Positions 645-40,435 of a stretch of DNA of 64,000 nucleotides are shown here, one piece after another (within the stretch, counting starts at the first letter, position 1; each line of letters starts with the position of its first letter). The notes beneath the pieces are model-generated. The model was not told the DNA's origin. It did no database searches and saw nothing but the letters and a program-made list of their open reading frames with translations. The position numbers and the translations under genes were made by a program. Origin of the DNA: a virus; the IMG/VR virus record IMGVR_UViG_3300048032_000927, positions 51,246-115,245 of that record. One strand, given 5' to 3'.

Positions 645-672
645 ATTATAACAGATTTTTAAAAAATGTCAA
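645..672 (-). promoter_or_regulatory. Consensus sigma70 promoter facing the sigma gene
   Basis: TTGACA (672-667), N16, TGnTATAAT (hexamer 650-645). Confidence 0.6.
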
Positions 673-1538
673 CAAAAAAATTTAAAATTATTCTCATAAG
701 TGATTTTAACTGCGATCAAAGTCCCGGCGGGGCGCAAGTAAGCAACGACCTAATTATACAAGAGGGCTTAAAAAGAGGGCACGATATTAGACTTCATAAC
801 TATGATAGCTCGCCAGTGAATTTCTTGAGCAGCTATGACATTGTGATTAGCTCCAACCTGGAGGTTATATATCAGGCGAGTAAAAATATTTTTGATTTCA
901 TCATTGACCACCCAAATCATGTTAGACTAGAACACGATTCATGTCTTTATTTGTCAACAGATGATAGAGTTAAGCTGTTTGAATCATCTAAGTTGAACTT
1001 CTTTCTCTCACAATACCATCTTGATTTTTTTATTTCAATGTATGGCGATATTTTTGGAGAAACAAAAATCGTAAGTGACCCCATAGATACAGATCTGTTC
1101 AATAAAAATAAATCAATTGAAAAGACGTATGATATAATTTATTGCGGACTAATACATGAGCTTAAGGGAATTAACAAACTACTTGAGTTTTCAAATAAAA
1201 ATCCCAACAGACAGATAGATGTTTTTGGTTGGGGTAGGGCAAATATAAAATCAATTTTCGAAAATTATCCTAATATCAATTTTAACGGTAAAATCAAACA
1301 CAGCGAGATGCCAAAAGTATTTCAATCCTGCCAATCGGTTTTTCACAGTCCTATAGTTAATGAGCCTTTCTGTAGAATGGTTGCCGAATCTATATTGTGC
1401 GGAGTTGAAAGTATTATAGGTTCTCCAGAAAGAATTGGATCATATCTTGAGTATAAAAGATTGGGGCTTGATAAATTTAGAGATAATTGCGCAAATGCTC
1501 TAACTAATTTTTGGGAATCGCTGGAGAGTATAACATGA
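666..1538 (+). CDS. GT4-like glycosyltransferase (GT-B)
   Basis: GGAQ N-terminal motif, YCGLIHELKG, EPFCRMVAESILCG. Confidence 0.8.
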   Translation: MSTKKFKIILISDFNCDQSPGGAQVSNDLIIQEGLKRGHDIRLHNYDSSPVNFLSSYDIVISSNLEVIYQASKNIFDFIIDHPNHVRLEHDSCLYLSTDDRVKLFESSKLNFFLSQYHLDFFISMYGDIFGETKIVSDPIDTDLFNKNKSIEKTYDIIYCGLIHELKGINKLLEFSNKNPNRQIDVFGWGRANIKSIFENYPNINFNGKIKHSEMPKVFQSCQSVFHSPIVNEPFCRMVAESILCGVESIIGSPERIGSYLEYKRLGLDKFRDNCANALTNFWESLESIT

Positions 1539-2218
1539 TTACGGTTATATGTTCGGTCTATAACTCGGAAGAGTACCTGCCTAAATACTTAACTTATGTT
1601 AACGAACAATTTCTTAAGTGTTTTGAAATTATTTTTGTAGATGCAAACTCTAACGATAGATCTTTACAATTGATTGAAGATTTTAAATTCAGAGATAACA
1701 TATCAGTGAAGGTAATTAAAGAAAAATCAAGAGTTACAATATACGAAGCATGGAACATAGCCATCAAAAATGCTTCGGGCGAATATATTGTCAATTGGAA
1801 TACAGATGACATACTTTTCCAGTCTTCACTCCAAACATACAAATCGTATACAGAAAAACATCCAGACATAGATTTATTTTACGGACCGTGTTTTCTCTGC
1901 AAGTCTCAAGAAATCTCATCAATATTTAACATATACAATTGGCCTGAATATAGTCACCGAACCCTACTTCAAAGATGCATTTGCGGTCCCTTTCCATTGG
2001 TCAGAAAATCTGCTATCGAGGACGTGAATTATTTTAGTGAAAAATATGTATCAAGCGGAGACTATGAAATGTGGCTTAAATTATCGAAAAACAATTATAA
2101 GTTTCAAAAAATACCCGAAACAATAGGGTGCTTTATGGATCGGCCTAATTCTGTCTCTCAGCAAAAAATACAGTTGGCGCAACAAGAAGATCGAGAAATA
2201 CAAAATAAATATGCCTAG
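1535..2218 (+). CDS. GT2 glycosyltransferase
   Basis: ITVICSVYN, FVDANSND, WNTDD, GDYEMWL; ATG 1535 overlaps upstream stop (ATGA). Confidence 0.85.
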   Translation: MITVICSVYNSEEYLPKYLTYVNEQFLKCFEIIFVDANSNDRSLQLIEDFKFRDNISVKVIKEKSRVTIYEAWNIAIKNASGEYIVNWNTDDILFQSSLQTYKSYTEKHPDIDLFYGPCFLCKSQEISSIFNIYNWPEYSHRTLLQRCICGPFPLVRKSAIEDVNYFSEKYVSSGDYEMWLKLSKNNYKFQKIPETIGCFMDRPNSVSQQKIQLAQQEDREIQNKYA

Positions 2219-2927
2219 ACCATTCGAAGCCTGCAATTATATTGATATAAATGGAATTGACTACATGTATCTCAATGACGATTCCCCAGATCTCGCTTAT
2301 CAATCAAGCGAAATAAGTTTTGTAGCACAACCGATAGCCGATAAAATCACAAACAAGCGTCATAATGTAATAACCGTCCCCCTTATGATGACGGATGAAT
2401 GGGAGATAATAAAAGAAAACCCTGCGTTAATACCAAAACTTAGATCAAATAAAAAAATACACACATTTAATTTTGTCGGTCAGTGCAATTATATGGGTAG
2501 GCACATATTTAAATCACTAAATTTATCTAATTACGATTTCGAGGAAACACAAACAGTCTACAACCTCAAAAAACCAGAAAAAAAACAAAAATTAATCCAC
2601 TTCCTAAATCGAATATCAGAATCTAAGTTCGTATTTTGCCCAAGAGGAATTGGATCCAGTTCTTTTCGAGCATACCAATCGATGATGTCTGGGTCTATTC
2701 CGATCATAACAGGAATGAATGATTATCCATTTGAAGATGAAGTAGACTGGGATGAAATATCAATCAGAGGTAGCTTGGAAAATATTAAATTATTAATTGA
2801 TACTGCTTTAAATATGCAAGATTTTGAATACAATAAAATGAAGAAAAAATGCACTTGGTTTTGGGACAATTACTGCAAGCACGATATGTTATATAATTTT
2901 TTAGCGCAAAAAGTAAATGAGCAATAG
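2211..2927 (+). CDS. Exostosin-like (GT47) glycosyltransferase
   Basis: SKFVFCPRGIGSSSFRAYQSMMSGSIPI, YPFEDEVDW. Confidence 0.75.
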   Translation: MPRPFEACNYIDINGIDYMYLNDDSPDLAYQSSEISFVAQPIADKITNKRHNVITVPLMMTDEWEIIKENPALIPKLRSNKKIHTFNFVGQCNYMGRHIFKSLNLSNYDFEETQTVYNLKKPEKKQKLIHFLNRISESKFVFCPRGIGSSSFRAYQSMMSGSIPIITGMNDYPFEDEVDWDEISIRGSLENIKLLIDTALNMQDFEYNKMKKKCTWFWDNYCKHDMLYNFLAQKVNEQ

Positions 2928-3705
2928 CTTAATAATTAATGGTTCTCGCGCTGGATTCTTTTCTATGTTTAGAGGTACAGTGGGTACACTATTAATATGC
3001 GAACAACAAGCATTAACACCATTCATTGATTGGAAAAATACTCTATATAACGATAGCCCAAACGATAATGCATGGGAATATTATTTTGAAAATATATCTG
3101 ATCTTGATCCTGAAAATTATACTACAGCAAGATGTCACAACATTCTCCCAAGAGAATACAACACTAGACTAACCATGAACAGGTTAATAAATAAATATGT
3201 CAAAATCAAGTCTGATATAAATAAAAAAATCGAAATTATAGTCAAAGAATTAGGAAAAAATCCGCTTGGTGTTCATATAAGGATGACTGATAAAATAAAC
3301 TGCACTTCTCATGGCGAGCCTGAAAGCGGAAAACCAATTTCAATTGATTTATACAAAAAGCATATTGATAAAAATTTACAAGAACATGGCTCTAAATTTT
3401 TTCTAGCAACTGACGATGAGTCTGCGGCTGAAGAAATTAAAACTGAATATGGCGAAAATGTCATAACCACTAATTCAATTAGATCAACAGGCACAAAAAG
3501 CATTCACCATCACTTGGCTGGAAATAACAGAATAAAGGGTGAGCAAGTTTTAATTGACTGCCTTGTATTAAGTAGATGCAAACATATCATTAAAGGTATT
3601 AGTAATGTTGCTTTATGCGCCATGTTCTGGAATCTAGACTTGACATGCGATAATCTCAATTCTATATACAACGGCGACTCGAGAGAAGATTTTGTGCATG
3701 AATAA
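2917..3705 (+). CDS. NodZ/GT23-like fucosyltransferase
   Basis: AGFFS, LGVHIRMTDK, FFLATDD, LIDCLVLSRC, SNV. Confidence 0.7.
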   Translation: MSNSLIINGSRAGFFSMFRGTVGTLLICEQQALTPFIDWKNTLYNDSPNDNAWEYYFENISDLDPENYTTARCHNILPREYNTRLTMNRLINKYVKIKSDINKKIEIIVKELGKNPLGVHIRMTDKINCTSHGEPESGKPISIDLYKKHIDKNLQEHGSKFFLATDDESAAEEIKTEYGENVITTNSIRSTGTKSIHHHLAGNNRIKGEQVLIDCLVLSRCKHIIKGISNVALCAMFWNLDLTCDNLNSIYNGDSREDFVHE

Positions 3706-4549
3706 GATTAGTAGTGAGCCGTTTTTGAGTGGATATACTTATCGTTCACTAGCAAGTCAGGCAATATGTGACAATGGCGATACTCGTTACATGAAATCTA
3801 CATGTAATGGTATAAATCCTAATGAAGTTATTGAAAACGAACTCTTATATGTAACCGGAAATCAAACCAAAAGATTTTTTATAGAAATCGCGCCAAAAAT
3901 TAAAAACAAGTTTTCGGTTATCACAGCTCAAACGGACCCAGGGGTTGATGCTTCTTATGTCAAATTACTCCCAGATAATTTAGTTACTTGGTGGTCAATT
4001 AATGTTCACGTAGATCACTCAAAAATTAAACCAATTCCACTAGGCTTACAAAATTTGCACTGGCGGTATAATGGAAATATTCAAAGTGACCCAGAAACTT
4101 ATAAGAAATACCAACCTAACCCTAAAGAAAAAAAAATACTAGGCTCCTTTTCGGTTCAGAACAACCATCATGAAAGAAGTACATGTTTAAACGCAGCAAA
4201 AAAAATCAACTGTGACTTCAGAATGTTCAAATCCGAAGATAGAAAAAATGAAAGTTACGTTGATGATTATTTTAATACAGTGTCAAGATATAAATTTGTG
4301 CTGTGTCCTTGGGGTGCAGGAATTGACACCCATAGATTATGGGAAACCTTGTATTTAGGTTCAATACCCATCACCAGACGTCACAGAGTTTATCGTGATT
4401 TTGAGGATTTTCCTATATTATTTCTGGACGATTGGCTAGAACTTATTGAAATAGATTTTGAATCAACGTACAATTACTACAAAGAGAAATTACAAACAGA
4501 AAATAGAATTTATTTTGAATACTGGAATAATAAAATTATTTCAACATAA
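3698..4549 (+). CDS. Exostosin-like (GT47-related) glycosyltransferase
   Basis: PIPLG, YKFVLCPWGAGIDTHRLWETLYLGSIPI. Confidence 0.7.
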   Translation: MNKISSEPFLSGYTYRSLASQAICDNGDTRYMKSTCNGINPNEVIENELLYVTGNQTKRFFIEIAPKIKNKFSVITAQTDPGVDASYVKLLPDNLVTWWSINVHVDHSKIKPIPLGLQNLHWRYNGNIQSDPETYKKYQPNPKEKKILGSFSVQNNHHERSTCLNAAKKINCDFRMFKSEDRKNESYVDDYFNTVSRYKFVLCPWGAGIDTHRLWETLYLGSIPITRRHRVYRDFEDFPILFLDDWLELIEIDFESTYNYYKEKLQTENRIYFEYWNNKIIST

Positions 4550-4592
4550 AGAAGAGAAGGCTTCTGTTAATTAGTGAATATAATTATATGAT

Positions 4593-5273
4593 ATGAAAAT
4601 AGGGTTTGTAGTTACAACACATTATAGTGATATTTGTCCAACTGGTATGGATAGTATTATTACTTACATAGATAGTTTCGTAAAGATAAGGAAGAATAAT
4701 TATTTTCTCTACGTGATAGATAATACATCTGTAAAAAAAATAACACACCCTGAAATGGAATTTTCTTGGTTTAATTATGAATATATTGAAGATCAAAAAA
4801 TAAGTGGCTTAACAGGTGCTTGGAACAAAGGGATTAAAAAAGCAATTGATGACAGTTGTGATATTATTTTAAATACTAATAACGATTTAATTTTAAATGA
4901 ATCAACACATTCGTTAATTGAGATAATATCAACGCATGAGCATTCTGATAAATCCTTATACGGTCCAGTTACAACTAGAGATGGTGTTTCTACTGATCAT
5001 CAAGCTAGAAACGGTGTTGGTGATAGACTTATTGAAACATCAGATCATTACGCATTAAACGGATTTTTTAATGCTTTTACAAAAGAATTTTTTAATAATT
5101 TTAATATAGAGGGTAATCTCTACAGTACCGATATAAAAGAAATGTGGTGTGGTCAAGAAGTGGAATTATATAACAGAGGTAAAACAAATGGTATGAAAAG
5201 TTTCATTGTAGAACATTGTTTTGTAGAACATATTAAACATAGGTCTTGGATATCAGCAAAAAATAAATTATAA
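4593..5273 (+). CDS. GT2-like glycosyltransferase
   Basis: VIDN, GLTGAWNKGI, NNDL, C-terminal VEHIK. Confidence 0.65.
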   Translation: MKIGFVVTTHYSDICPTGMDSIITYIDSFVKIRKNNYFLYVIDNTSVKKITHPEMEFSWFNYEYIEDQKISGLTGAWNKGIKKAIDDSCDIILNTNNDLILNESTHSLIEIISTHEHSDKSLYGPVTTRDGVSTDHQARNGVGDRLIETSDHYALNGFFNAFTKEFFNNFNIEGNLYSTDIKEMWCGQEVELYNRGKTNGMKSFIVEHCFVEHIKHRSWISAKNKL

Positions 5274-6268
5274 TGAAAAATATATTAATAACAGGAGTTG
5301 CTGGTTTAATAGGCAGTAGGTTAGCAGATTGGATAATAGATAATACTGACTATAATGTAATTGGTGTCGATAATCTGAGTGGAGGTTACGTTGATAATGT
5401 ACATGAGGGTGTTAAGTTCTATCAGATGGATGTGAAAGATTCGGCGATTGGAGATATTTTTAAAGAATATAAACCTATATATGTTTTCCACTTTGCAGCA
5501 TATGCTGCAGAAGGTTTAAGTCCATTCATTAGATGTTTTAATTATGAAAATAATTTAGTAGCAACTACAAATATCGTCAATAATTGTATTAATTATGATA
5601 CTAAAAGATTGATATTTACATCTACTATGGCAGTATACGGTAAAGGAAATCCACCGTTTAATGAATCTGATCAACCAAATCCAATAGACCCATACGGTGT
5701 TGCTAAATTTGCTTGTGAATCAGATATACAAATCGCTGGTGAACAACATGGGTTAGACTGGTGCATTATTCGACCACATAATGTTTATGGTATTAAACAA
5801 AACATATGGGATAAATATAGAAATGTTTTAGGAATATGGATGTACCAGCACATGAATGATATTAGTATGACTATCTTTGGGGACGGTGAACAAAAACGAG
5901 CGTTTAGTTTTATCGATGATTGTTTAGAACCTTTATGGAAATCAGCAGTTAAGAAAGAAGCTAGTAAAGAAATTATAAATTTAGGTTCTAGTAAATTCTA
6001 TACCATTAACGAAGCCAATAGAATCTTAAAGAGCGTGATTGGTGGTGGTAGTACTAAATATGAGAAAAAAAGACATGAAGTAAAAAATGCGCACCCAACA
6101 TGGGAAAAATCAATGAGGATATTAGATTATCGAGACAAGATTTCGTTAAAAGATGGTTTAAATCTTATGTGGGAATGGGCGAAATCTCAACCGGATAGAG
6201 AAAGATTTGTTTGGAATAAATACGAAATAGAAAGAGGTATCTACGATTTTTGGAAAATAAAAAAATAA
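5273..6268 (+). CDS. NAD-dependent nucleotide-sugar epimerase/dehydratase
   Basis: TGVAGLIG, YGVAK catalytic motif, RPHNVYG. Confidence 0.9.
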   Translation: MKNILITGVAGLIGSRLADWIIDNTDYNVIGVDNLSGGYVDNVHEGVKFYQMDVKDSAIGDIFKEYKPIYVFHFAAYAAEGLSPFIRCFNYENNLVATTNIVNNCINYDTKRLIFTSTMAVYGKGNPPFNESDQPNPIDPYGVAKFACESDIQIAGEQHGLDWCIIRPHNVYGIKQNIWDKYRNVLGIWMYQHMNDISMTIFGDGEQKRAFSFIDDCLEPLWKSAVKKEASKEIINLGSSKFYTINEANRILKSVIGGGSTKYEKKRHEVKNAHPTWEKSMRILDYRDKISLKDGLNLMWEWAKSQPDRERFVWNKYEIERGIYDFWKIKK

Positions 6269-6285
6269 AACAAAGTTTAAAAATT

Positions 6286-6885
6286 ATGGAAAGAAGTGAT
6301 ATAATAAACAAGTATGTTGAAAATTATGGTTATGAGACATATTTAGAGGTTGGATTACAAAGTGGTAGTAATAGAGATAAGATCAAAGTTAACCCTAAAA
6401 ATAAAACCACTGTTGACCCTGATATTACATCTAATAACCCTACACACAGAATGACATCAGATGAGTTTTTTATGGGTAATAATAAAACATTTGATGCAAT
6501 TTTTATTGATGGGTTACATTATTCCGATCAGGTATTAAGAGATATTTTAAATGGGTTAGAGATTCTTAATGAAGGGGGTACAATTTTTTGTCATGATATG
6601 TTACCTGAGAATGAAGATATGGCTAAAGTACCTAGAATTACAAGTACATGGACAGGTGACTGTTGGAAGGCTTGGTTTAAATTATTAGGTACTAGGGATG
6701 ATTTAGAGATGTTCATTGTTGATACTGATTTAGGTGTTGGTGTTATAAGAAGAGGTAAAAATATACCTTTAAAAGAATTAAATATACCTATGGAGAATAT
6801 GCAGTGGAGTCTATTCGCTGAACACTCAATAAAAAATACTATCAATAAAATTAGTACTTCTGAATTTATTGAAAAATGGAAATGA
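6286..6885 (+). CDS. Class I SAM methyltransferase (Methyltransf_24-like)
   Basis: YLEVG, FDAIFIDGLH, GGTIFCHD, WTGDCWK. Confidence 0.8.
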   Translation: MERSDIINKYVENYGYETYLEVGLQSGSNRDKIKVNPKNKTTVDPDITSNNPTHRMTSDEFFMGNNKTFDAIFIDGLHYSDQVLRDILNGLEILNEGGTIFCHDMLPENEDMAKVPRITSTWTGDCWKAWFKLLGTRDDLEMFIVDTDLGVGVIRRGKNIPLKELNIPMENMQWSLFAEHSIKNTINKISTSEFIEKWK

Positions 6886-7583
6886 AACTAATAACAATAT
6901 TCAATTTTCCCAATCAAAATAATTACAACAATCTTTGTCAATGGTGGATTAGTCAATGCCTAAAAAATTCGGAATTAGATATTGAAATTTGGTATAGAGA
7001 CAGCATTGATCACCTTAAAATTTTAGATAAAAGAATCAGGTGCATTAAAAAAGATGAAGTCAAAATATCTAGTCTATTAAAATCAAACTTAATCTCAGAT
7101 AAAGCTCAACATAATATTGGATTCAAGCTTTACAATCTTTGTCAAGAGTCCGATCCCTTTATATTTATAGACGCCGACGCTATTTTATTTAAAGATATTA
7201 CCCCATTAATCAACGCCTCTAAAGATAAGCCTTTTATAGCTATAAACCACCAAGATATACCCGGACACACTTCTCATATACCTTATAAGTTCTTAAATAG
7301 CGGGGTCCAGATTTGCAGTGACTCCAGTGTATTAGATTTTAATGAAATTGTTAAAGCCCAAAATCTTCATGATTATTTTATTGTTCCCGGCACGGATCAA
7401 TCAATGCTTTGGACGTACTTTAACCATATTAAATATAATTATACGCACAAAGATATTGGTCGCGAATGGAATAACTGCGCAGGATTAAAGAGTGGCGAAA
7501 GTGACATTTGCATAAACCATTATTGGTACAACTTTAAACCATGGAATATTAAATGTAAATTCTGGGAATCTTTTTTATCATAG
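6882..7583 (+). CDS. GT8-like GT-A glycosyltransferase
   Basis: FIDADA, NSGV, DQ, WN, INHY. Confidence 0.65.
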   Translation: MKLITIFNFPNQNNYNNLCQWWISQCLKNSELDIEIWYRDSIDHLKILDKRIRCIKKDEVKISSLLKSNLISDKAQHNIGFKLYNLCQESDPFIFIDADAILFKDITPLINASKDKPFIAINHQDIPGHTSHIPYKFLNSGVQICSDSSVLDFNEIVKAQNLHDYFIVPGTDQSMLWTYFNHIKYNYTHKDIGREWNNCAGLKSGESDICINHYWYNFKPWNIKCKFWESFLS

Positions 7584-7588
7584 CATAA

Positions 7589-8620
7589 ATGAAAAAAATA
7601 ATTATTACAGGAGTCACAGGTCAGGACGGCAGTCATATGGCTGACTATTTATTAAAAAATACTAATTTTAAAATCTACGGAGCAGTTCGTCGTCTTAGTG
7701 TTAAGAATCACGAGAACATTTTACATTTAGAAAATGAGCCGCGCTTTGAGTTAATAAATATGGACCTTAACGACGCTCATAGCATGAGAGATGTCATCAT
7801 AGATCTTCAGCCTGATTATTTTATTAATTTCGCCGCCCAATCTTTTGTTGCCGGTAGCTGGGATTACCCAATCCAAACATGGGACACCGATGCAGATGCA
7901 GTTCTGCATATACTAGAATCAATCAGAAGATTTTCGCCAGCTTGTCGTTTTTATAATGCAGGATCCTCCGAAGAATTTGGCGATGTTATTTATAGCCCCC
8001 AAAATGAAGAGCATCCATTACGACCACAATCTCCTTATGGCGCAGCAAAATGCGCGGCTCGTCATATTGTGAGGGTCTACAGAGAATCTTACGGTTTGTT
8101 TGCGATTCAAGGTTGGCTATTTAATCACGAGGGCACAAGAAGAGGTCTCGATTTTGTTACAAGGAAAATCAGCAACGGTGTCGCAAAAATTAAACATGCA
8201 ATTGAAAGCGGTCAAGAAATTCCTACCCTGCAGCTCGGCAATATTGACGCTCAACGAGATTGGACTGACGCAGAAGATTTTATGGAAGGAGTTTGGATGA
8301 TGCTGAACAGAGACAAGCCCAAAAACTATGTTCTCGCTAGCGGCAAGATGTATACTGTTCGTGAGTTTTTGAATGAAAGTTTAAAATGTGCTGATATTAA
8401 ATTTATAGCAAAAGGCTCCGAAGAAAACGAAGAATATTATACCGAAGACGGCAAACTAATCTTTAAGGTTAATTCAAAATTTTATAGGCCCGCTGAAGTT
8501 CATGAGCTTTGCGGAGATTGCTCTCTGGCAGAGCAGGAGATGGGCTGGACTCGTAAAACTGACTTCTACGGTTTGGTTAAAAAAATGTACGATAACGATT
8601 ACAAGCTTCTCTCAAAGTGA
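7589..8620 (+). CDS. gmd: GDP-mannose 4,6-dehydratase
   Basis: TGVTGQDG, AAQSFV, SPYGAAK, FNHE, FVTRKI, RPAEV. Confidence 0.95.
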   Translation: MKKIIITGVTGQDGSHMADYLLKNTNFKIYGAVRRLSVKNHENILHLENEPRFELINMDLNDAHSMRDVIIDLQPDYFINFAAQSFVAGSWDYPIQTWDTDADAVLHILESIRRFSPACRFYNAGSSEEFGDVIYSPQNEEHPLRPQSPYGAAKCAARHIVRVYRESYGLFAIQGWLFNHEGTRRGLDFVTRKISNGVAKIKHAIESGQEIPTLQLGNIDAQRDWTDAEDFMEGVWMMLNRDKPKNYVLASGKMYTVREFLNESLKCADIKFIAKGSEENEEYYTEDGKLIFKVNSKFYRPAEVHELCGDCSLAEQEMGWTRKTDFYGLVKKMYDNDYKLLSK

Positions 8621-14606: not shown

Positions 14607-14614
14607 TTTTTTTT

Positions 14615-14623
14615 GTGTAATCT
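14615..14623 (+). promoter_or_regulatory. Class II motif
   Basis: GTGTAATCT, 15 nt before GTG 14630. Confidence 0.6.
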
Positions 14624-14629
14624 ATAGGC

Positions 14630-15216: not shown

Positions 15217-15218
15217 TC

Positions 15219-15247: not shown

Positions 15248-15253
15248 ACTACT

Positions 15254-19829: not shown

Positions 19830-19833
19830 TTTT

Positions 19834-25247: not shown

Positions 25248-25249
25248 AA

Positions 25250-26655: not shown

Positions 26656-26666
26656 ATATAATTAAC

Positions 26667-27182: not shown

Positions 27183-27192
27183 AATTTATATC

Positions 27193-29646: not shown

Positions 29647-29651
29647 TCTTG

Positions 29652-30272: not shown

Positions 30273-30276
30273 AAAC

Positions 30277-32049: not shown

Positions 32050-32983
32050 TTTTGCACCATACAGAATTATAGGAAAACCTTTTGATTTTGACCTTATTTG
32101 CGAAGAGGATCGCTTTCGGTTTGGCAGGGTTGTAGTTGAAAAAAAGAATGGTTCATTATTAAACCATTACTATGATCACTCTCCATGGAAATTTGATGCA
32201 AAAAACTCAAAAGCAGTTAGCTTTATCAAGCAGATTGAAAGGGCTGATGCGGCTCTAAACTTTCCAGACTTCAATCCAGTTAAAATTTATTTTATAGATG
32301 TCCCACCCAAAGCTGATATCATCAATCAATCAGCTGATCCCATTTTATTTCAGTCTTACATTGATAAAAACGAACCGGAATGCCCCCTCAGCCTAAGGAA
32401 TCATCCAGATTTTATTTGTTGCCCCGATTTTACTTTTTGGGATTGGTGCGGAATGAAATATGATCGTTACTTTAGTAAAATCCGTACTGCTGGAGAGTCA
32501 AAGCCAGTTTCCTTAAAACTGTTTTGGCGCGGCACAAAATACCCAAAACTTCGCGGCCCCTTAGTTGATCTTAGCGAGCAGTATCCAGATATAATTGATG
32601 CAAAATTTGCAAAGCCTAATAAAAACGACCAAAACTTTATTTCTTTAGAAGATGCAGTTCTTGGTTACAGTTATTTTATTGACCTGCAGGCTTCTGGCTG
32701 GAGCCCAAGAGTTAAATACTTCCTTCAGTCTCATCGTTTGACATTTTTACAGGAGCGCTTTCATAAAGCATACTATGAAAAAGATTTGGTTCCCATGGAG
32801 CATTACATACCAATCAAAAAAGATCTATCCGATCTTGTTGATAAAATTAATTGGGCAAACAGCAATCCTAAAGCGGTTTCAGAAATTATAGAAAATGCTT
32901 TCAATTTCAGTATAATAAATTTCTCTATAGACGCCGTAAACAAAAAGTGGCTAGAAGTAATAGAGTATTCACAAAGAGGTTAA
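32039..32983 (+). CDS. GT90/CAP10-like glycosyltransferase
   Basis: PDFTFWDW, LFWRG, YFIDLQASGWSPRVKY, LVPMEHYIPI...DL. Confidence 0.8.
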   Translation: MSSDFAPYRIIGKPFDFDLICEEDRFRFGRVVVEKKNGSLLNHYYDHSPWKFDAKNSKAVSFIKQIERADAALNFPDFNPVKIYFIDVPPKADIINQSADPILFQSYIDKNEPECPLSLRNHPDFICCPDFTFWDWCGMKYDRYFSKIRTAGESKPVSLKLFWRGTKYPKLRGPLVDLSEQYPDIIDAKFAKPNKNDQNFISLEDAVLGYSYFIDLQASGWSPRVKYFLQSHRLTFLQERFHKAYYEKDLVPMEHYIPIKKDLSDLVDKINWANSNPKAVSEIIENAFNFSIINFSIDAVNKKWLEVIEYSQRG

Positions 32984-32995
32984 AACATTTTCCCT

Positions 32996-33661
32996 ATGTA
33001 CGATTTAATTATATTAACTACAGCGATTGATAGGCCTGATTTACACAACCAGACCTTGCGGCCATTTTTTAATATGCTTGAAAAACAGGGGATTAATCAC
33101 AAGTGGATTGTTAATTTAGATTCTCCATTTAATAAAAGAGAAGCAGCATTAAATAATCTTAAAACGTTTAATTATAGCTACCATGGTCATGATATACATA
33201 TGTCAAATAAGGCGTGCTTTTACTCAGCAGCAAAACATGTTATAACTGCTGCATACGATGATCTAGTCGATCTTGATGGATATGTAATGTGGCTGGAGGA
33301 TGACTGGGATTTACTTGTCCCATTTAACATGCGAGAGTTAATAGATAGCGACTACGAATATATTGGCTTTCACTTTCATCACTTTTTTGAATTCTCCTTC
33401 AACCCAACTATTTGGAGTCAAGATTTCTTTGTAAAAAATGTATATGAGCCCTTTGCTTCCTCAGAAGAGTCTATAGACCCAGAGCAACTTCTTATTAACC
33501 ACCACAAAAAAACTAGAGCAGAAGACCCCAGCCATTTAAAAAATGTAAAACGCATCAATTTTAATGGTGTGTTTGAAGATGCTGGCAGAAAATGGGGCGA
33601 GCAATATAATTTAAAAAAATGGAATAAAAATAAAACAGGAGGAAGTGTTAGTTATGTATAA
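32996..33661 (+). CDS. GT-A-like glycosyltransferase
   Basis: TAIDRP, WLEDDW, SFNPTIW, DPE. Confidence 0.55.
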   Translation: MYDLIILTTAIDRPDLHNQTLRPFFNMLEKQGINHKWIVNLDSPFNKREAALNNLKTFNYSYHGHDIHMSNKACFYSAAKHVITAAYDDLVDLDGYVMWLEDDWDLLVPFNMRELIDSDYEYIGFHFHHFFEFSFNPTIWSQDFFVKNVYEPFASSEESIDPEQLLINHHKKTRAEDPSHLKNVKRINFNGVFEDAGRKWGEQYNLKKWNKNKTGGSVSYV

Positions 33662-34385
33662 AGCTTCTATCATATTATCGTCCTACAATAATTTATCTGC
33701 ACTAAAGTTAAGCATTGAAAGTTTAAAATACCAAACAGAAAAAGATTTTGAAATTATTATAGCAGACGATGGATCAACAGATGGAACAATAGAATACTTG
33801 GAAAAAGAAAACATAAAGTATTTTAGCCATCCAAACGAAGGATATAGACTTGCATATATATGGAATCGCGGCGCCGAACTAGCAACTGGAGATAGATTAA
33901 TTTTTGGTAATGCGGATATTATATCTCACCCCAAAAGAATTGAAGAGCATTTAAAGTTTAGCAATAATTTAGTTGCTGGTATTTATCCATCAATCCCAAT
34001 TGATAAAGTCTCCTCTATTACAAATCATATGATTGCTGATAAATTTGAAGATGTCACTTCACTTGCAACACACGATAGAAGAAAAGATTTTATCGATAAA
34101 ATTAAGCGCCCATACTTAGTTCATGGTAAAAAAATTCCACCACGGTATATGTATGGCGGTAATTGGTCTTGTCCCGCCAACACTTTCATAAAGCTTGGCG
34201 GTCTAGACGAAGGCTTTAGAGGCTGGGGAGGAGAAGATTTTGACTTTGCTAGAAGAGCGGAGTTAGACGGCAACGATATTATACTCAATACTAATTGCAT
34301 AGGTTACCACCTGGACCACGAGACCATTAATAGGGATAGCACCAAATCAATCGGCAAAGGGTATTTTAATAAAAAATGGAATTAA
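33654..34385 (+). CDS. GT2 glycosyltransferase
   Basis: SYN, ADDGSTD, GGLDEGFRGWGGED, YHLDH. Confidence 0.88.
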   Translation: MYKASIILSSYNNLSALKLSIESLKYQTEKDFEIIIADDGSTDGTIEYLEKENIKYFSHPNEGYRLAYIWNRGAELATGDRLIFGNADIISHPKRIEEHLKFSNNLVAGIYPSIPIDKVSSITNHMIADKFEDVTSLATHDRRKDFIDKIKRPYLVHGKKIPPRYMYGGNWSCPANTFIKLGGLDEGFRGWGGEDFDFARRAELDGNDIILNTNCIGYHLDHETINRDSTKSIGKGYFNKKWN

Positions 34386-34406
34386 CATTTAAAGAGTGGA
34401 TCGATA

Positions 34407-35063
34407 ATGAAAAAAATTCTTAAAGTTTTTGTATGCTGTCACAAATACATCCATAGAGTTGAAGAGATAAAAGCTCGCGTTAATAAATGGTGCCTTGGCG
34501 ATTATTTAATTTTTATTGGCGGCGAAGAAGAACAAGAATTAGAAGAAAATGTTATTCAATTAAAATGCAGGGATCTATACGAAGACCTTCCAGAGAAAAT
34601 GTTTGCGATTTATACTTATCTATCTAACCTTGGATATACAGACCTTTATGACTATTTCTGGAAAATAGATGACGACATAGGCTTCATTAAATGGAATGTT
34701 CATCGCGAAGCAAATCTATACAATGAATTAAAGAACCATCACTATTGCGGTTTTAAACTTAAGCCTGGGAGCAAAGGGGGTAAAAGAGGCTGGCACATTG
34801 GCAGAGTAAAAGAAGATTCTCCTTGGTACAACAAGCGATACGATGGAGAGTACATAGACTGGATTGATGGCGGTACTACTTATTTCCTAAGCTCGCATGC
34901 ATTAAACAAATGGAAAGGTTTTGCTGGGCTTAATCAAGTTAGATACAATGATATATACGAAGACCTTGCAGTGGCAAAATATTTATCTAAGTTTGATATT
35001 GTTCCATCAGAAATTGATCCCTGGCAAGGTAAGACTATTTTAAAATTCAACATTAATAAATGA
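34407..35063 (+). CDS. GT31-like galactosyltransferase
   Basis: DLYEDLPEK, KIDDD, GGTTYFLS, YEDLAV. Confidence 0.75.
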   Translation: MKKILKVFVCCHKYIHRVEEIKARVNKWCLGDYLIFIGGEEEQELEENVIQLKCRDLYEDLPEKMFAIYTYLSNLGYTDLYDYFWKIDDDIGFIKWNVHREANLYNELKNHHYCGFKLKPGSKGGKRGWHIGRVKEDSPWYNKRYDGEYIDWIDGGTTYFLSSHALNKWKGFAGLNQVRYNDIYEDLAVAKYLSKFDIVPSEIDPWQGKTILKFNINK

Positions 35064-35863
35064 ACAAAAATATTTTCTTACTATGTCTGCAAGGATGGGA
35101 CAATGCTCCATGGTTATATCGCGAAGTGTCTGAATCCTGGGAAATCAATAACCCAGATTGGAAAATTCATTATATAGATTTTAATAATTTAAAAGATTAC
35201 GTTGATGACATAGATTATATTTATGATAAAACTAAAGATATAAGGAAACCTGCTCAAAGCGATATTATACGTTTATCTTTATTGAAAAATTACGGGGGTG
35301 TATGGGTTGACGCTACTTTGCTTTGCATGCAACCCTTAGACCATTGGGCTCAAGAAGCCGTATCCCATTCAGGTATATGGATGTATCATGCATGCATTGA
35401 CCCAAAGACTAATTTTATAGGGGGTGCTAGTTGGTTTATATTGTCAGAAAAATCTTCCTACATTATCAATAAATGGAAAGAGGGGTGTGATATTTATTGG
35501 GGTAAAATGAACAAGATGCACACGTTTTTATGGATGGATTCTATTTTTAAAGATTTATTTTTTGCTGATAATAAATTTAGAGATGAATGGGTTGATTGTT
35601 GCTACGCAAAAGGTTTAGACATGAATTCTGAATATGGCTCCAGGGCTGAATCGCCAAATTGGCTTAACGATAATAAATTCAGGTCAGATATATTTTTAAA
35701 TACCCCTCCTTATGCCGTTAAATTAACTAAATTCTTTATGGATTCATTTCCTGACCCTACTTCTGTTGATTTTAAAAATTCCAGCATTTATAATGCAATA
35801 AAAATGAGTAAAAGAAAATTTGTATACAAACATCCTTGGGAAACTCCTAAGAAGTGTAATTAA
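35060..35863 (+). CDS. GT32/capsular-polysaccharide-synthesis-like transferase
   Basis: QGWDNAP, SW...NPDW, SDIIRLSLLKNYGGVWVDAT. Confidence 0.8.
   Translation: MNKNIFLLCLQGWDNAPWLYREVSESWEINNPDWKIHYIDFNNLKDYVDDIDYIYDKTKDIRKPAQSDIIRLSLLKNYGGVWVDATLLCMQPLDHWAQEAVSHSGIWMYHACIDPKTNFIGGASWFILSEKSSYIINKWKEGCDIYWGKMNKMHTFLWMDSIFKDLFFADNKFRDEWVDCCYAKGLDMNSEYGSRAESPNWLNDNKFRSDIFLNTPPYAVKLTKFFMDSFPDPTSVDFKNSSIYNAIKMSKRKFVYKHPWETPKKCN
35854..35862 (+). promoter_or_regulatory. Class II motif
   Basis: GTGTAATTA, 15 nt before ATG 35869. Confidence 0.5.
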
Positions 35864-35868
35864 ACGAA

Positions 35869-36678
35869 ATGAAGCCTGTTAAAGTTACCAATGAGCGCAC
35901 TGGAGGGAATTTATTCCACTATGCACATTTTATTTGTGATTGCTTGTATCCTGAATTTTTATCTGGAGTTTTTGATTATACCGATGTCTTCAGATTAAAA
36001 AGCATTCATCAAACATTAGGAAACTTCGCATCTTTTTACGAAGAAATCTCTGGAGCAAAAAATCACGAATTAGTGCTAGATTCCTTTGATTCTCTTGATT
36101 ATGAACATATTGTTTGCCAAAGAAAAGAAGACGAAAATGACTTTGCTAATTTTGAATCTTTCAGGAAATTTATATTCAACCGTTTAGATATTAAAGCTTT
36201 GATTGATCAAATGGACGATCTTAATTGTTCGGCCCCTGAAATATTATTAATCAAAAGGGGAGAGCCTACCGAACTAATAAGTGACGAAGAATTAAAACTA
36301 GAGAACCCCAATCAAACTAACGGAAAAGAAAGGCGAGAAATATTAGGGGTGGGCAAAGTTGAAGAAAAATTAAAAAATATATACGGAAGTCGGATGCGCT
36401 CTGTTGTTCTCGAAGAAATGCCTTTTCGAATGCAGGTTTTTTTATTCAATCAAGCTAAATTTATTATCTGTGCACACGGAGCATGCATGAGTAATTTATT
36501 TTTTTGCGAACCAGGCACTAAAATATTAGAAGTACAAGCTCAAACCGCTCAAGATAGGGTTATTGGTGCAGGCTGTTATCCGTTTTTTGATTACATTTCA
36601 AAAACACTAGATCTAGATCAGCACAAAACAAAAAATAATCCCTTCATGGTTATAAAGACTGCCCAAAAAATACATTAA
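35869..36678 (+). CDS. GT61-like glycosyltransferase
   Basis: LFHYAHF..D, RREI, AHGACMSNLFF...G..ILE. Confidence 0.8.
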   Translation: MKPVKVTNERTGGNLFHYAHFICDCLYPEFLSGVFDYTDVFRLKSIHQTLGNFASFYEEISGAKNHELVLDSFDSLDYEHIVCQRKEDENDFANFESFRKFIFNRLDIKALIDQMDDLNCSAPEILLIKRGEPTELISDEELKLENPNQTNGKERREILGVGKVEEKLKNIYGSRMRSVVLEEMPFRMQVFLFNQAKFIICAHGACMSNLFFCEPGTKILEVQAQTAQDRVIGAGCYPFFDYISKTLDLDQHKTKNNPFMVIKTAQKIH

Positions 36679-36679
36679 G

Positions 36680-37447
36680 ATGAATTTTAAATCTTACATG
36701 ATCACTTTCACTAAAGACCAGAATCGCCTTATTAATTTCAATCAGGCTAAATTAAAGTTGGATAATTTAGAATTATTTAATGCGGTAAATGCTATTGATC
36801 ATTACAGTCATTTCGAATCAATTGATAGAAAAAATAATTATCATACTGATCAATATATTGATCAGTGGAAATGGCTTCCTGGCAAACTGGGATGTAATTT
36901 GTCTTATGTTAAGTTGTTGAAAGATTATCATCGTAATTATAATTTTTATCCCGACTTCCCTTCTTGGCTTCTTGTTATAGAAGATGATGTTGAAATTAAA
37001 ATAGAGGACGCCACTTCTGTATTTTCTTCCATATTAAACAAGGCATCTGATTTAAGTTTTGACTTTGTTAAATTTTTCATAACAACGGGCAAAGAAAATA
37101 TTAACGGGAAAATTATAGAGTTTTCACCTGAATTGCAATTTGATGAATCGAGACATATATCTGACGGTTTTTATAAACTTATGCCATCGTGGGGTACAGC
37201 TGCTCAAGCTTTTCATATTAATTCTGTATCTAAAATATTAAAGCAGTTGCCATGGAATGACCACATTGATCAAATACTTATGAGACCTCCATTATTTGAC
37301 TCACTAAATAGCGCTGCTTACAAACAAGATTTTTTAAACTATTGCGGTGCTAAAAGTTTAGAAGAAGCCGACGAGGGTTACGGAAGTCTTATATTTAACA
37401 ACTCAACTGATGGCAAGGTTGACTGGAGAAAACTCACAAGAATATGA
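36680..37447 (+). CDS. GT25-like glycosyltransferase
   Basis: NR, FNAVN, GKLGCNLSY, IEDD, WGTAA, HID. Confidence 0.75.
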   Translation: MNFKSYMITFTKDQNRLINFNQAKLKLDNLELFNAVNAIDHYSHFESIDRKNNYHTDQYIDQWKWLPGKLGCNLSYVKLLKDYHRNYNFYPDFPSWLLVIEDDVEIKIEDATSVFSSILNKASDLSFDFVKFFITTGKENINGKIIEFSPELQFDESRHISDGFYKLMPSWGTAAQAFHINSVSKILKQLPWNDHIDQILMRPPLFDSLNSAAYKQDFLNYCGAKSLEEADEGYGSLIFNNSTDGKVDWRKLTRI

Positions 37448-38031
37448 TTTCTCATGAATTAAAATGTATCTTCATACATATACCTAAATGTGCGGGCAGC
37501 TCTATAAATCAACAGCTTAAATTAGATTCAGTAGGATTCTCTGGTCATTCGCCAGCATCATACCATTCTGAATACAAAGATTATTTTTCTTTCACTTTTG
37601 TAAGGAATCCATATGATCGAATAGTTTCGGCGTATAAATATTTCCGCAAACTTAAACCAGGGCATCGTTGGTATAAAAGAAACAGTATAATATCTGATGC
37701 CGCAAATGACATGGAGTTCAATGATTTTGCTCATCACATCAATGATTTTATGAAGCTGATGAAACGAGAAGAAGGTTCATTTGAATCTGGCATCCACTTT
37801 CAACCTTTTCATTATTTTATTGATCAGCCGATTGATTTTGTTGGTCGCTTTGAAAATATTCAACAAGACTATTTTAAGATTTTATCTCATTTAAAACTTT
37901 CTATCAAGCCCCTTCGCAAAACCAACTCAACAAATAATTCAGATTATAGACGATTATATATGGAAGATAGTAAAAGAGAGGTGTACAATATATATGAAGA
38001 AGACATTAACAAATATAAATATAAATTTTAA
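37444..38031 (+). CDS. Sulfotransferase (Sulfotransfer_2)
   Basis: HIPKCAGSS, VRNPYDRIVS, VGRFENI. Confidence 0.88.
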   Translation: MISHELKCIFIHIPKCAGSSINQQLKLDSVGFSGHSPASYHSEYKDYFSFTFVRNPYDRIVSAYKYFRKLKPGHRWYKRNSIISDAANDMEFNDFAHHINDFMKLMKREEGSFESGIHFQPFHYFIDQPIDFVGRFENIQQDYFKILSHLKLSIKPLRKTNSTNNSDYRRLYMEDSKREVYNIYEEDINKYKYKF

Positions 38032-38034
38032 CTT

Positions 38035-38613
38035 ATGACTGATCAATTTCCACTTCCTTATTATTTTAAATTATCTAGTGGTCGAAAATCCTTGTTAGAA
38101 CTAATTACCCCCAACTCTAAATGCGTAGAAGTCGGAGTATTTAAAGGTGATTTTACGTCTTGCATTTTAGATCAATCTCCTGCAGAATTAAATCTAATTG
38201 ACCCTTGGGATAGTATTATCGATGTTCCTGCTAGATGGCATGCTATTCCACAAGATGATATGGATGAAATTTTCAAAGAAGTTTCCTCTAGATTTTCTAC
38301 AGAGTCAAAGGTAAATATCATTAAAAAATATTCTGTTGATGCGCTTGATCAATTTGAAGACGAATCACTAGATTGGGTATACTTGGATGCAAACCACTCT
38401 TATTCTTTTGTAAACCAAGACCTCGAAGGCTGGTGGCCTAAATTAAAACCTCAAGGGTTTTTATGTGGTAATGCATATATCGACGGTGATGCTCAATTAA
38501 GATTATTGGATTTCGGTGTAATACCTGCAGTTGATAGTTTCCTCGAAGATCGTTTTGATGAAATAGAGGATTTTGACAACCAGCAAGACCAATTCTGCAT
38601 TCAAAAAAAGTAA
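38035..38613 (+). CDS. Methyltransf_24-like SAM methyltransferase
   Basis: EVGVFKG, IDPW, LDWVYLDANHSY, WPKLK. Confidence 0.85.
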   Translation: MTDQFPLPYYFKLSSGRKSLLELITPNSKCVEVGVFKGDFTSCILDQSPAELNLIDPWDSIIDVPARWHAIPQDDMDEIFKEVSSRFSTESKVNIIKKYSVDALDQFEDESLDWVYLDANHSYSFVNQDLEGWWPKLKPQGFLCGNAYIDGDAQLRLLDFGVIPAVDSFLEDRFDEIEDFDNQQDQFCIQKK

Positions 38614-38621
38614 CCCTTCCA

Positions 38622-39446
38622 ATGGAAGACATACTGCTTTTATTTAACGAAACCTTTTTAAAAAAAAACGGTATCATTACCGTTAACTCTACCAAAGATA
38701 TACCAAATCAAGATTCTATTCTTTTTATTGGCAGTCATAGGTATACTTTTAACCCCCAAAAGATACTTGAATATTTTGAACCTATATCTAAAAAACCTTT
38801 TACTTATTCAATTATTTGCGGCAAAACAGATCGCTGCTTAAGTAAAGATATAGATATACCTGATAACATTAAAAAAATTTATTGCAATAACGTCGACTAT
38901 TCTCACGATATTATTAAGTTCTTTCCAATGGGTAGGGATTTCAGGGCAAGAGATTGTTTTCATAAAAATACCGAAAACAGAGATCGAGATATTTTAGTTT
39001 ATGGTAATTTTTCATTAAATACAAGCTGGATAAGAAAAGCTATTTATTTGTTTACAAAAGACAATCCCATGTATACTCTTGAAAATATTGGCTCAAGAGG
39101 AACAAGAGGAGAAAAACGTTCTTGGTTTATGCCTAATGATCAATTTTTTAATAGATTGCGAAGCAGTAAATTTGTAATGTGTCCGCGAGGAACGGCACCT
39201 GATTCTTTCAGGTTTTATGACACTCTTTATTGCGGTGCAATTCCTATTGTCGTTAAAGACTCGATGTACGATCAATTTGATCACTCAGAGTTACCAATTC
39301 TTTTCCTGGATCATCAAAAAGATTATCAAAAAATTAGTGAAGATTTTTTAAATGAGCAATATAATATATTATCTCAAAAAATAAAACCTTATTATAAAAC
39401 ATTAGATTTCAATCATTGGATAAAAAGAATTAAATTAGAATTATGA
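38622..39446 (+). CDS. Exostosin-like (GT47-related) glycosyltransferase
   Basis: SKFVMCPRGTAPDSFRFYDTLYCGAIPIV. Confidence 0.72.
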   Translation: MEDILLLFNETFLKKNGIITVNSTKDIPNQDSILFIGSHRYTFNPQKILEYFEPISKKPFTYSIICGKTDRCLSKDIDIPDNIKKIYCNNVDYSHDIIKFFPMGRDFRARDCFHKNTENRDRDILVYGNFSLNTSWIRKAIYLFTKDNPMYTLENIGSRGTRGEKRSWFMPNDQFFNRLRSSKFVMCPRGTAPDSFRFYDTLYCGAIPIVVKDSMYDQFDHSELPILFLDHQKDYQKISEDFLNEQYNILSQKIKPYYKTLDFNHWIKRIKLEL

Positions 39447-40435
39447 AAATATTAGTTGGAGGAGCAGGCGGCTTTATAGCCGGTTATTTAGTTAAAGATT
39501 TATTGGCACAAGGGCATGAAGTTATCGCCGCCGACATTAAGCCCGCAGATATGTGGTATCAGACGTTTGATGGTGCAGAAAATCATGCGGATTGTAATCT
39601 GCAAGAAAAAGATCATTGTTACAAATTAAGTGTCGGTGCTGATCGCATCTACAATCTTGCCTGCAATATGGGCGGCATGGGGTTTGTTGAAAACAATCAA
39701 GCTCTTTGCATGGAGAACGTTCTTATTCAGACTCACATGATGATGGCTGCGAGAGACAATGGTGTCAAAGAAGTTTTATATAGCTCAACTGCTTGTGTTT
39801 ATCCAGCCGCAATTCAATCTGAAATTAAAGACGAATCATCTCAGGCACTTAAAGAATCTGATGTATTTCCAGCTAATCCAGATGATGGATATGGTTGGGA
39901 AAAATTATTTAGTGAATTGATTACTTATTATTACGGAAAAGATTTTGGTATTGATTCACGCACTTGTCGCTACCATAATGTTTATGGGCCATTTGGAACA
40001 TGGCGTGGTGGTCGTGAAAAAGCTCCTGCTGCAATTTGTCGTAAAGTTATAGAAGCCAAGATGAGTGGTAAGCACGAAATTGAAATCTGGGGTGATGGCG
40101 AACAAACTCGTTCATTTATGTTTATTAATGACTGCTTGACCGGTATGGATTTAATGTGGGAAAAAGGTGACTCTCGCCCACTCAACCTTGGAAGTGATCG
40201 TATGGTTTCTATCAATCAGCTTGTTGATATTGTAGAAAATATCGGCGGCATTAAATTAAAAAGAAACTACAATTTAGATGCACCTCAAGGTGTCCGTGGT
40301 CGCAATAGCGACAACACTATGATCAAAGAGGTTTTAGGTTGGGCTCCTTCTATTACACTAGAAGATGGACTTGAAAAAACATATGAGTGGATTTACAATC
40401 AAATGCAGAATTGCAAAGATTCTGATGGATATTAA
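39443..40435 (+). CDS. GDP-mannose 3,5-epimerase-like SDR
   Basis: GAGGFI, MGGMGF, YGWEKL, GGREKAPAAICRK, GVRGRNSDN. Confidence 0.88.
   Translation: MKILVGGAGGFIAGYLVKDLLAQGHEVIAADIKPADMWYQTFDGAENHADCNLQEKDHCYKLSVGADRIYNLACNMGGMGFVENNQALCMENVLIQTHMMMAARDNGVKEVLYSSTACVYPAAIQSEIKDESSQALKESDVFPANPDDGYGWEKLFSELITYYYGKDFGIDSRTCRYHNVYGPFGTWRGGREKAPAAICRKVIEAKMSGKHEIEIWGDGEQTRSFMFINDCLTGMDLMWEKGDSRPLNLGSDRMVSINQLVDIVENIGGIKLKRNYNLDAPQGVRGRNSDNTMIKEVLGWAPSITLEDGLEKTYEWIYNQMQNCKDSDGY

Follow-up and report, generated by a model that had tools for sequence, protein, structure and literature searches.

Glycan synthesis with virus-encoded enzymes has been described for several viruses. Chloroviruses (PBCV-1 and relatives) build their capsid glycan with Gmd/GMER, glycosyltransferases (GTs) free of transmembrane (TM) segments and a methyltransferase domain (PMC4691112), and the mycobacteriophages Che8, Corndog and Myrna glycosylate the virion with their own GTs (Freeman et al. 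2023 as cited in PMC12619734). Marine cyanomyophages and pelagimyophages (P-SSM2, S-SCSM2R, PMP genomes) carry clusters of GT and nucleotide-sugar genes, including gmd and fcl, in hypervariable regions (PMC7029224, PMC12801897, PMC10611076), and 13 GTs are possibly the highest number in a marine phage (PMC12801897). In bacteria, loci for sulfated capsular or extracellular polysaccharides (synechan xss of Synechocystis; capsule of Vibrio sp. KMM 8419) combine GTs and sugar-nucleotide genes with sulfotransferases dependent on 3'-phosphoadenosine 5'-phosphosulfate (PAPS) (PMC8205485, PMC11641403). Here we analysed a stretch of 64,000 nucleotides (the window), which is the right half (positions 51246-115245) of the single 115,245-bp virus record IMGVR_UViG_3300048032_000927. 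Positions 666-40435 of the window hold an island of ~40 genes, with ~35 kb, or ~30% of the contig, related to glycans. Judging from its predicted enzymes, this island very probably makes a sulfated, fucose-containing glycan. With less than even confidence we propose that it is a self-contained, phage-borne glycan-tailoring island, a lineage trait of uncultivated marine tailed phages, and that virion proteins may be the acceptor.

The likeness to chloroviruses lies in the virus Gmd and GDP-fucose synthase, the cytoplasmic TM-less GTs, the O-methylation of sugars and the unused secretory or export pathway, and it extends to a core GT4-like protein that matches NY2A B736L (3oy2) by fold. On the other hand, the present locus belongs to a tailed phage of bacteria and not to a eukaryotic virus, has far more GT families, shuffled as cassettes, and encodes sulfotransferases (four here and up to 11 in relatives), which are not mentioned in PMC4691112; here, attachment to a capsid protein is a proposal. 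The island differs from the mycobacteriophage case by its ~40 genes and its place in the replication module, and sulfation is not mentioned where that case is cited (PMC12619734). Compared with the cyanomyophages and pelagimyophages, it belongs to an unrelated lineage with a DnaE-type polymerase, a lambda-type tail tip and several sulfotransferases, encodes ~20 GTs against 13, and has Gmd as a near-core gene. Set beside the bacterial sulfated polysaccharide loci, it has no polymerisation or export genes of the Wzx/Wzy, ABC or synthase type. The analogy to chloroviruses and mycobacteriophages, which had been drawn in a first-pass annotation of the window, is reasonable. Both gmd/fcl genes and GT islands have been described in phages before (PMC10611076, PMC7029224), and no description of multi-sulfotransferase phage islands was found in the literature searched. 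Among 50,697 deposited phage records, relatives of the sulfotransferases occur in 47, as single copies of at most 26% identity, and 43 of the 47 belong to one cyanophage species. Ralstonia phage phiRSL1 and Synechococcus phage ACG-2014f have one annotated sulfotransferase-like open reading frame (ORF) each, that of ACG-2014f beside a GT25 gene.

The phage identity of the contig is secure. Replication and tail genes stand on it as claimed at first: the window encodes a DnaE-type polymerase, a DnaB-like helicase, primase, exonuclease, UvsX-like recombinase, ClpA-like ATPase, class I ribonucleotide reductase (RNR) and tail-fibre-like proteins, and upstream of it lie a 4098-aa tape measure and then lambda-type tail-tip genes (Table 1). 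The record lacks a terminal repeat and is 82% complete (CheckV); GC content within the window is 0.31-0.41, and nearly all window genes are on the plus strand. We made family searches in 22 related phage records and 14 control cellular genomes; the record studied is denoted G000, and G001 is a complete relative of 150,766 bp with a 90% identical polymerase. Sulfotransfer_2 was found in 18 of the 22 related records (1-11 copies each) and in none of the 14 cellular genomes, GT2 in 21, and full-length Gmd in 18 plus one cut at a contig end. G001 is syntenic with G000 from the tail genes through the island, which is 44 kb long in G001, to the replication genes. We thus rejected a cellular chimera, which the first-pass annotation had named as an outcome that would overturn it, because an independent relative with a complete genome shows the island in synteny and the key families recur across the 22 records.

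GT families were called at the curated cut-offs of Pfam, with further support from NCBIfam and a language-model search. Within the island, 14 ORFs exceed the Pfam cut-off, four lie below it and two are language-model leads only (Table 1); two more GT genes, GT9-like (394 aa) and GT4/GT1-like (640 aa) in Pfam, are just upstream of the window on the other strand. The resulting count of ~22 is close to the "about 23" GT-like genes estimated earlier. Soluble GTs number ~20, of at least 12 families. Gmd (GDP-mannose 4,6-dehydratase; 346.9 bits against PF16363 and 317.7 bits against TIGR01472) and Fcl (GDP-L-fucose synthase at 8617; 429.6 bits against NF047922) are both full-length profile matches, and the predicted supply of GDP-L-fucose is upheld. 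There are three further extended short-chain dehydrogenases/reductases (SDRs), namely 5273 (GalE-like), 9870 (303 aa) and 39443 (Fcl-like). The specific assignment of a GDP-mannose 3,5-epimerase was not confirmed, since 5273 and 39443 are recognisable as extended SDRs only. The predicted UDP-sugar dehydrogenase is present at 10778-11608, but in a short form of 276 aa that covers profile positions 73-296 of 413 and misses the C-terminal UDP-binding domain; this form is kept in G001 (87% identity) and in a further relative, G007 (37%).

Sulfotransferases bind PAPS by a 5'-phosphosulfate loop, PKxGxT/S, and a 3'-phosphate motif, RxPxxRxxS. The Sulfotransfer_2 proteins at 22242, 24603, 26023 and 37444 score 56-60 bits against a Pfam cut-off of 22, and all four contain H-[IT]-PK-x-[AG]-G-[ST] and [VF]-VRNP-x-[DN]-x-x-VS (HIPKxxGT / RNPxDRxVS), so that they are predicted PAPS-dependent sulfotransferases with intact PAPS-binding motifs. 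A fifth one had been claimed at 22918, which was not confirmed: Pfam and NCBIfam gave no match, hhalign against sulfotransferases gave a probability of 6.6%, and a PDB profile search was empty. The homologues of 22918 form a small family without Pfam domain, mostly on phage-sized contigs, and an R-x-G-T-T-S loop is the sole hint of a related fold. Three Methyltransf_24 genes (6250, 29649, 38035) and one hexapeptide acetyltransferase of the CatB/Vat class (26667) agree with the three to four methyltransferases and one acetyltransferase listed before.

With regard to the sulfate supply, a search for PAPS synthesis genes found neither a kinase for adenosine 5'-phosphosulfate (APS) nor ATP sulfurylase on this contig. 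An APS-kinase-like half-domain is present in 9 of the 22 relatives (G001, G002, G007, G009-G011, G013, G015, G020). In G001 (109793-110599, minus strand) it forms the N-terminal half, with GLPGSGKTT and LGFSSEDR, of a protein of ~268 aa, the C-terminal part of which is an NMNAT-like nucleotidyltransferase region; this fusion could be a compact enzyme of PAPS supply or of NAD salvage. The domain tracks the sulfotransferases uncleanly, as G015 has the domain and zero sulfotransferases, and G004 has nine sulfotransferases without the domain. In G007, eight sulfotransferase genes alternate with genes of ~190-290 aa and end beside the APS-kinase-like gene. One frame of 657 aa in another relative (G002:C1:27667-29601) contains three Sulfotransfer_2 domains and looks like a triple sulfotransferase fusion.

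A Kyte-Doolittle hydropathy scan detected no TM segment in any glycan-related ORF. Among the Pfam families of the contig ORFs there was no flippase, polymerase, ABC exporter, ligase or phosphoglycosyltransferase (Wzx, Wzy and the like), and just one protein of the contig, the product of an unrelated 401-aa ORF at 48986, has several TM segments. The complete relative G001 likewise has no genes for initiation or export. Therefore, the first-pass description of a phage-encoded glycan pathway of soluble enzymes, with neither an exporter nor an initiating enzyme of its own, is borne out by the Pfam/NCBIfam inventory and the hydropathy scan.

That description had also called the system eukaryote-like and a candidate proteoglycan system, and neither term is supported. 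The label "eukaryote-like" arises because the families were first studied in eukaryotes and not from close kinship: the Pfam matches are modest and partial (E 1e-9 to 1e-24), and the proteins most closely related are those of phages. In PDB, POGLUT2 (E 1.2e-12) and POGLUT1 (E 4e-8) are matched by the GT90 ORF in their C-terminal halves only, and the matches to the GT47 profile are confined to its C-terminal part (e.g., positions 164-286 of 293), in proteins without a TM segment. Synthesis of a proteoglycan or glycosaminoglycan takes a Ser-Gly xylosyltransferase of GT14 type and a polymerase, either a GT47+GT64 exostosin or a GT2 synthase with TM segments; neither GT14 nor GT64 matched any ORF in Pfam, and a serine/threonine-rich mucin-type tract was missing. 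The sulfotransferase 24603 has ~70 clusters of orthologues with 64-93% identity on contigs of up to 222 kb, partly from Tara Oceans; beyond them identity is at most 43%, and the first named cellular matches (Rubritalea, Aliifodinibius) are at ~30%. In the language-model search, the clusters of the GT-like proteins of no known family are 65-100% viral. The pattern agrees with adaptation of the enzymes to a substrate specific to phages, and not with recent morons from a host.

The island content differs between close relatives, as it does in the hypervariable, GT-rich islands of marine lytic phages. Ten island genes of G000 (666-5270, 6876, 25250, 26667, 27807, 35060) have no counterpart or only a distant paralogue in G001, and others share 95-99% protein identity. 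DNA identity between the two is 92% over window positions 19069-24606, 75.5% in the replication module and 65-68% in the tail genes; the contrast of 92% with the 75.5% of the backbone indicates that the cassette at 19069-24606 was exchanged recently. G001 has in turn four more sulfotransferases, a sulfatase (461 aa, E 4e-50), UDP-galactopyranose mutase (Glf), a polysaccharide pyruvyl transferase, two cytidylyltransferases (CTP_transf_3 and cytidylyltransferase-like), an HpcH/HpaI aldolase and a weak MptE/Maf-like domain at 31003-31725. Its specific cassettes are at 30242-34378, 48598-57293 and 68801-70186. A cytoplasmic sulfatase within a sulfation island is odd.

The two upstream GT genes belong to a leftward operon of the genes for the single-stranded DNA-binding protein (SSB), the GT4-like and the GT9-like protein (GT pair at genome 45173-48276, minus strand). 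This operon is kept in five of five relatives fetched, even in G003 and G015 without any sulfotransferase, and we therefore distinguish a core (the GT4/GT9 pair and gmd) from a variable shell. The model of the 640-aa GT4-like protein (pLDDT, the predicted local distance difference test, 68.6) matches by fold MshA, BshA, the chlorovirus protein mentioned above and other GT4 enzymes, MshA and BshA being the closest. The protein has an invariant Cys4 zinc-ribbon-like insert (C271, C274, C289, C292). Furthermore, the pair looks like a split GT9: GT4-like residues 530-591 match the N-terminal domain of a GT9 (3tov), and the N-terminus of the 394-aa ORF, which overlaps the GT4-like gene by 4 nt, matches the C-terminal domain of heptosyltransferase II (1psw). 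A 261-aa protein that ends the SSB operon (genome 44410-45195, minus strand) is 57-80% identical in all relatives. Its low-confidence model (pLDDT 62.5) has a three-stranded sheet followed by a long helix, and the protein might be a single-strand annealing protein.

A perfect TTGACA-16-TGT-TATAAT at window 672->645 (minus strand) precedes the operon of SSB and core GTs and is kept in G001 and G003. TTGACT-17-TATTAT is at 15219-15247 before the gene for the RNR small subunit, and TTGACT-17-TATxAT sites are at ~42901 (before 42945) and ~50192 (before 50228); another consensus sigma70-type promoter is at genome 49224, and the spacers of these intergenic sites are 16-18 nt overall. The sites suggest early promoters for the host RNA polymerase and a host with canonical -35/-10 recognition, and their consensus TTGACA/TATAAT form speaks weakly against a Bacteroidota host. 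Because the core GT pair is co-transcribed with SSB from such a promoter, the sequence points to early or middle expression. The late expression assumed in the first-pass annotation is not supported, since the island is inside the replication and nucleotide-metabolism module with RNR embedded in it, the core GTs share an operon with SSB, and the GTGTA motif on which it leaned precedes RNR. This motif had been taken as shared by glycan and structural genes. In the form GTGTAWA it was found 13 times in the window against 15.8 expected, i.e. at chance level. Five of the eight plus-strand copies do stand in short gaps before gene starts, at 9870 (SDR), 11729 (RNR large subunit), 41131, 56893 and 61352, but only one of these, 9870, begins a glycan operon. 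GTGTAWA is a plausible phage promoter element, not specific to structural genes. As for structured RNA upstream of the 20-kb operon, Rfam gave nothing in the window and the 215-nt leader folds like its shuffles (z = -1.1).

We consider next what the glycan would be attached to. In the proposal with virion proteins, the soluble enzymes would add sugars singly to an acceptor in the cytoplasm of the infected cell, with GDP-mannose, UDP-sugars and PAPS drawn largely from the host. The product would be a strain-variable, fucose-containing glycan that is O-sulfated, O-methylated and O-acetylated. The acceptor, a weaker guess, may be virion proteins of the phage itself, for instance fibres or capsid decoration, and each phage strain would thereby have its own anionic sugar coat. 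We favour this because the enzyme clades are deep and phage-specific and G001 has no initiation or export genes, because a fibre-like gene inserted in the island is a possible acceptor nearby, and because chloroviruses set a precedent with Gmd/GMER, TM-less GTs and methylation. Cassette shuffling is typical of surface-exposed, diversifying glycans. In a stronger version, which is doubtful, the lineage would coat its virions with a polysulfated, fucosylated, methylated and acetylated glycan that varies among strains by swapping of cassettes, with activated sulfate partly from the phage APS-kinase-like fusion.

Several observations weigh against the virion as the target. GT genes within or beside the virion structural genes mark virion glycosylation of the mycobacteriophage type. 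The present island is flanked by SSB and RecA, encloses RNR and belongs to the module for replication and nucleotide metabolism, not to the head or tail genes, though its left end abuts tail-fibre genes and a fibre-like gene stands at 16290. Its glycan cassettes move independently of the tail genes (92-99% against 41-64% amino-acid identity), and the association of the core GT pair with SSB and a sigma70-type promoter points to early or middle rather than late expression. No serine/threonine-rich mucin-type acceptor tract was found, and the capsid gene is not on the contig. Finally, GTs and sulfotransferases of bacterial O-antigens and capsules are also soluble or peripheral, so that a route over host undecaprenyl-phosphate fits equally, and solubility and the missing exporter, to which the first-pass annotation had appealed, are compatible with a host lipid carrier and host exporters. 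The virion target stays conjectural on these grounds, and the mimicry of algal polysaccharides also suggested there found no support and is likewise a conjecture. An 854-aa fibre-like protein (genome 41856-44420), directly after the gpJ-like fibre, has 40 Ser/Thr-Gly against 13.6 expected. It alone is so enriched and has no homologue in G001, and the enrichment is probably a fibre repeat.

The glycan may instead be destined for the host envelope, which we regard as rather unlikely. Soluble GTs and sulfotransferases would then act on lipid-linked intermediates begun by a host phosphoglycosyltransferase and exported by host Wzx/Wzy or ABC systems, and the changed O-antigen or capsule might, for example, block superinfection or alter stickiness. 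The GT-rich hypervariable regions of pelagimyophages and cyanomyophages have been read in this way, as a hypothesis (PMC7029224, PMC12801897). It would agree with an island among genes of early or middle type and core GTs behind a host-type promoter, with a cassette mosaicism that resembles O-antigen loci, and with the pyruvyl transferase, Glf and CMP-sugar enzymes of G001, which are typical of capsule loci. However, no initiating enzyme, flippase, polymerase, ligase or exporter is present in any of the fetched relatives examined, the complete G001 included, and the enzymes form deep phage-specific clades instead of near copies of cellular genes. Moreover, for a phage that is presumably lytic, spending ~30% of the contig and of the G001 genome would be very costly if an altered host surface were all that it gained.

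A sulfated polysaccharide or glycoconjugate that is made in the cytoplasm, stays free or loosely bound and is released at lysis as matrix, decoy or non-covalent coat is an improbable product, and so is a glycosylated small molecule or lipid. All enzymes being soluble with no exporter would suit such a product, the GT4-like core has its nearest structural neighbours in MshA and BshA, enzymes that act on small soluble acceptors, and the G001 sulfatase suggests editing of sulfate patterns; yet no synthase for polymerisation was recognised, the variety of GT families points to a branched oligosaccharide of defined structure more than to a homopolymer, and there is no phage precedent. Hypermodification of phage DNA with glycans against restriction, as in T-even and 5hmC-glycosylating phages, is very improbable: SSB and a possible recombination protein share an operon with the two core GT-B enzymes, and diverse phage GTs are known to hypermodify DNA (10.1101/2023.12.21.572611), but no thymidylate-synthase-like hydroxymethylase and no TET/JBP were found in G000 and four relatives (five records, three of them at least 93% complete; the TET search matched nothing, controls included, and is a weak negative), no DNA methyltransferase domain was found among the window ORFs, and a chemistry with sulfotransferases, fucosyltransferase-like GTs and over 20 GTs exceeds by far that of any known DNA glycan.

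The features of the island and its surroundings are collected in Table 1. The N-terminal 244 aa of the 920-aa fibre-like protein in the island share 52% identity with an ORF of 286 aa among the clustered fibre genes of G001, which has no gene at the corresponding site of insertion. We rejected this FG-GAP protein as a paralogue of the terminal fibre gene, as there is no significant similarity. The GHKL-type ATPase is absent from four more distant relatives, and a PDB sequence search gave no match. The 4098-aa tape measure and the lambda-type tail tip imply an extremely long non-contractile tail; the PHROG label "tail sheath" on window 58005-60614 may be a misnomer.

Table 1. Coordinates of the island and adjacent features (window positions unless marked genome; numbers in brackets are gene starts; weak, below the Pfam cut-off; lead, language-model search only)
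Feature	Position	Strand	Content and remarks
Tape measure and tail-tip genes	genome 12083-24379		4098-aa tape measure; gpM-like domain (Phage_min_tail) in a 1736-aa protein; gpL-like (phrog_18 minor tail protein); JAB+NlpC/P60 gpK-like; 1750-aa gpJ-like central fibre
Start of leftward operon and promoter region	2-665	-	continues upstream of the window via SSB to the GT4-like and GT9-like genes
Variable cassette of six GT genes	666-5273	+	GT1 (666), GT2 (1511), GT47 (2211), NodZ/FUT8-like, GT23 (2917), RXYLT1_C/GT47-like (3692), weak GT2 (4593); Pfam; GC 0.305-0.336; absent from G001
SDR and methyltransferase	5273-7583	+	GalE-like SDR (5273), Methyltransf_24 (6250), 235-aa ORF of no assigned family (6876)
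Gmd and Fcl	7589-9561	+	Pfam, NCBIfam
Extended SDR (303 aa) and short UDP-sugar dehydrogenase (276 aa)	9870-11608	+	GTGTATA at 9856; G001 identity 91% and 87%
RNR genes	11729-16267	+	RNR large, NUDIX, two small ORFs, RNR small; nucleotide metabolism, not glycan-related, embedded in the island
920-aa fibre-like protein	16290-19052	+	FG-GAP/Kelch repeats; inserted in the island
Mobile cassette	19834-24602	+	213-aa ORF, GT2-like (20472) and GT8-like (21398), both GT-A-like leads, sulfotransferase, 266-aa ORF, NodZ-like fucosyltransferase, GT23 (23715)
Sulfotransferase and GT cluster	24603-30272	+	sulfotransferase, weak GT11 (25250), sulfotransferase, hexapeptide acetyltransferase, GT25 (27166), GT34 (27807), Nucleotid_trans, GT77 (28403), 157-aa ORF, Methyltransf_24
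GHKL-type ATPase (HATPase_c_3), 590 aa	30277-32049	+	mid-island; 82% identical in G001
Last GT cluster	32039-40435	+	GT90 (32039), 221-aa ORF, GT2/GT7C (33645), weak GT31 (34407), Caps_synth/GT32 (35060), GT61 (35869), weak GT25 (36680), sulfotransferase, Methyltransf_24, GT47 (38622), Fcl-like SDR

The best match of the polymerase among the deposited phage records is only ~30% identical, and its relatives are on at least 565 IMG/VR contigs, the best 80 of them 58-90% identical; these distant matches and numerous contigs indicate that the lineage is large and, within the phage collection searched, without a cultured member. Moraphages, which have a family B polymerase and in which a tape measure was not detected (PMC12619734), were rejected as the lineage, given the DnaE-type polymerase and the tape measure found here. 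tRNA genes, sought for host assignment, were not found. Assignment by metagenome-assembled genomes (MAGs) of GTDB failed, as the bins are Flavobacteriaceae, Bacteriovoracaceae, Cellvibrionales, Verrucomicrobiales, candidate phyla radiation (CPR), an archaeon and others. Binning of lineage contigs across such different phyla is probably noise or contamination of the bins by phages. One MAG labelled "Cellvibrionales" contains a contig of 210,818 bp whose polymerase is 87% identical to that of the window phage.

Were the virion to carry the glycan, particles of marine phages would bear variable anionic sugar coats, which could affect adsorption to hosts, marine gels and algal surfaces, recognition by hosts, grazers and enzymes, particle stability, and the entry of viruses into the organic sulfur and carbon pools. 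A polysulfated coat, if true, would make these the first bacterial viruses known to bear a sulfated glycoconjugate, and its variation would be the phage equivalent of O-antigen-like serotypes. Were the glycan destined for the host envelope, no larger phage programme for remaking a cell surface would be known. Either way, glycan chemistry takes up ~30% of a phage genome of 115-150 kb, and the trait is near-universal in a lineage of at least 565 viral contigs, which is a rich source of small soluble GTs and sulfotransferases for glycoengineering.

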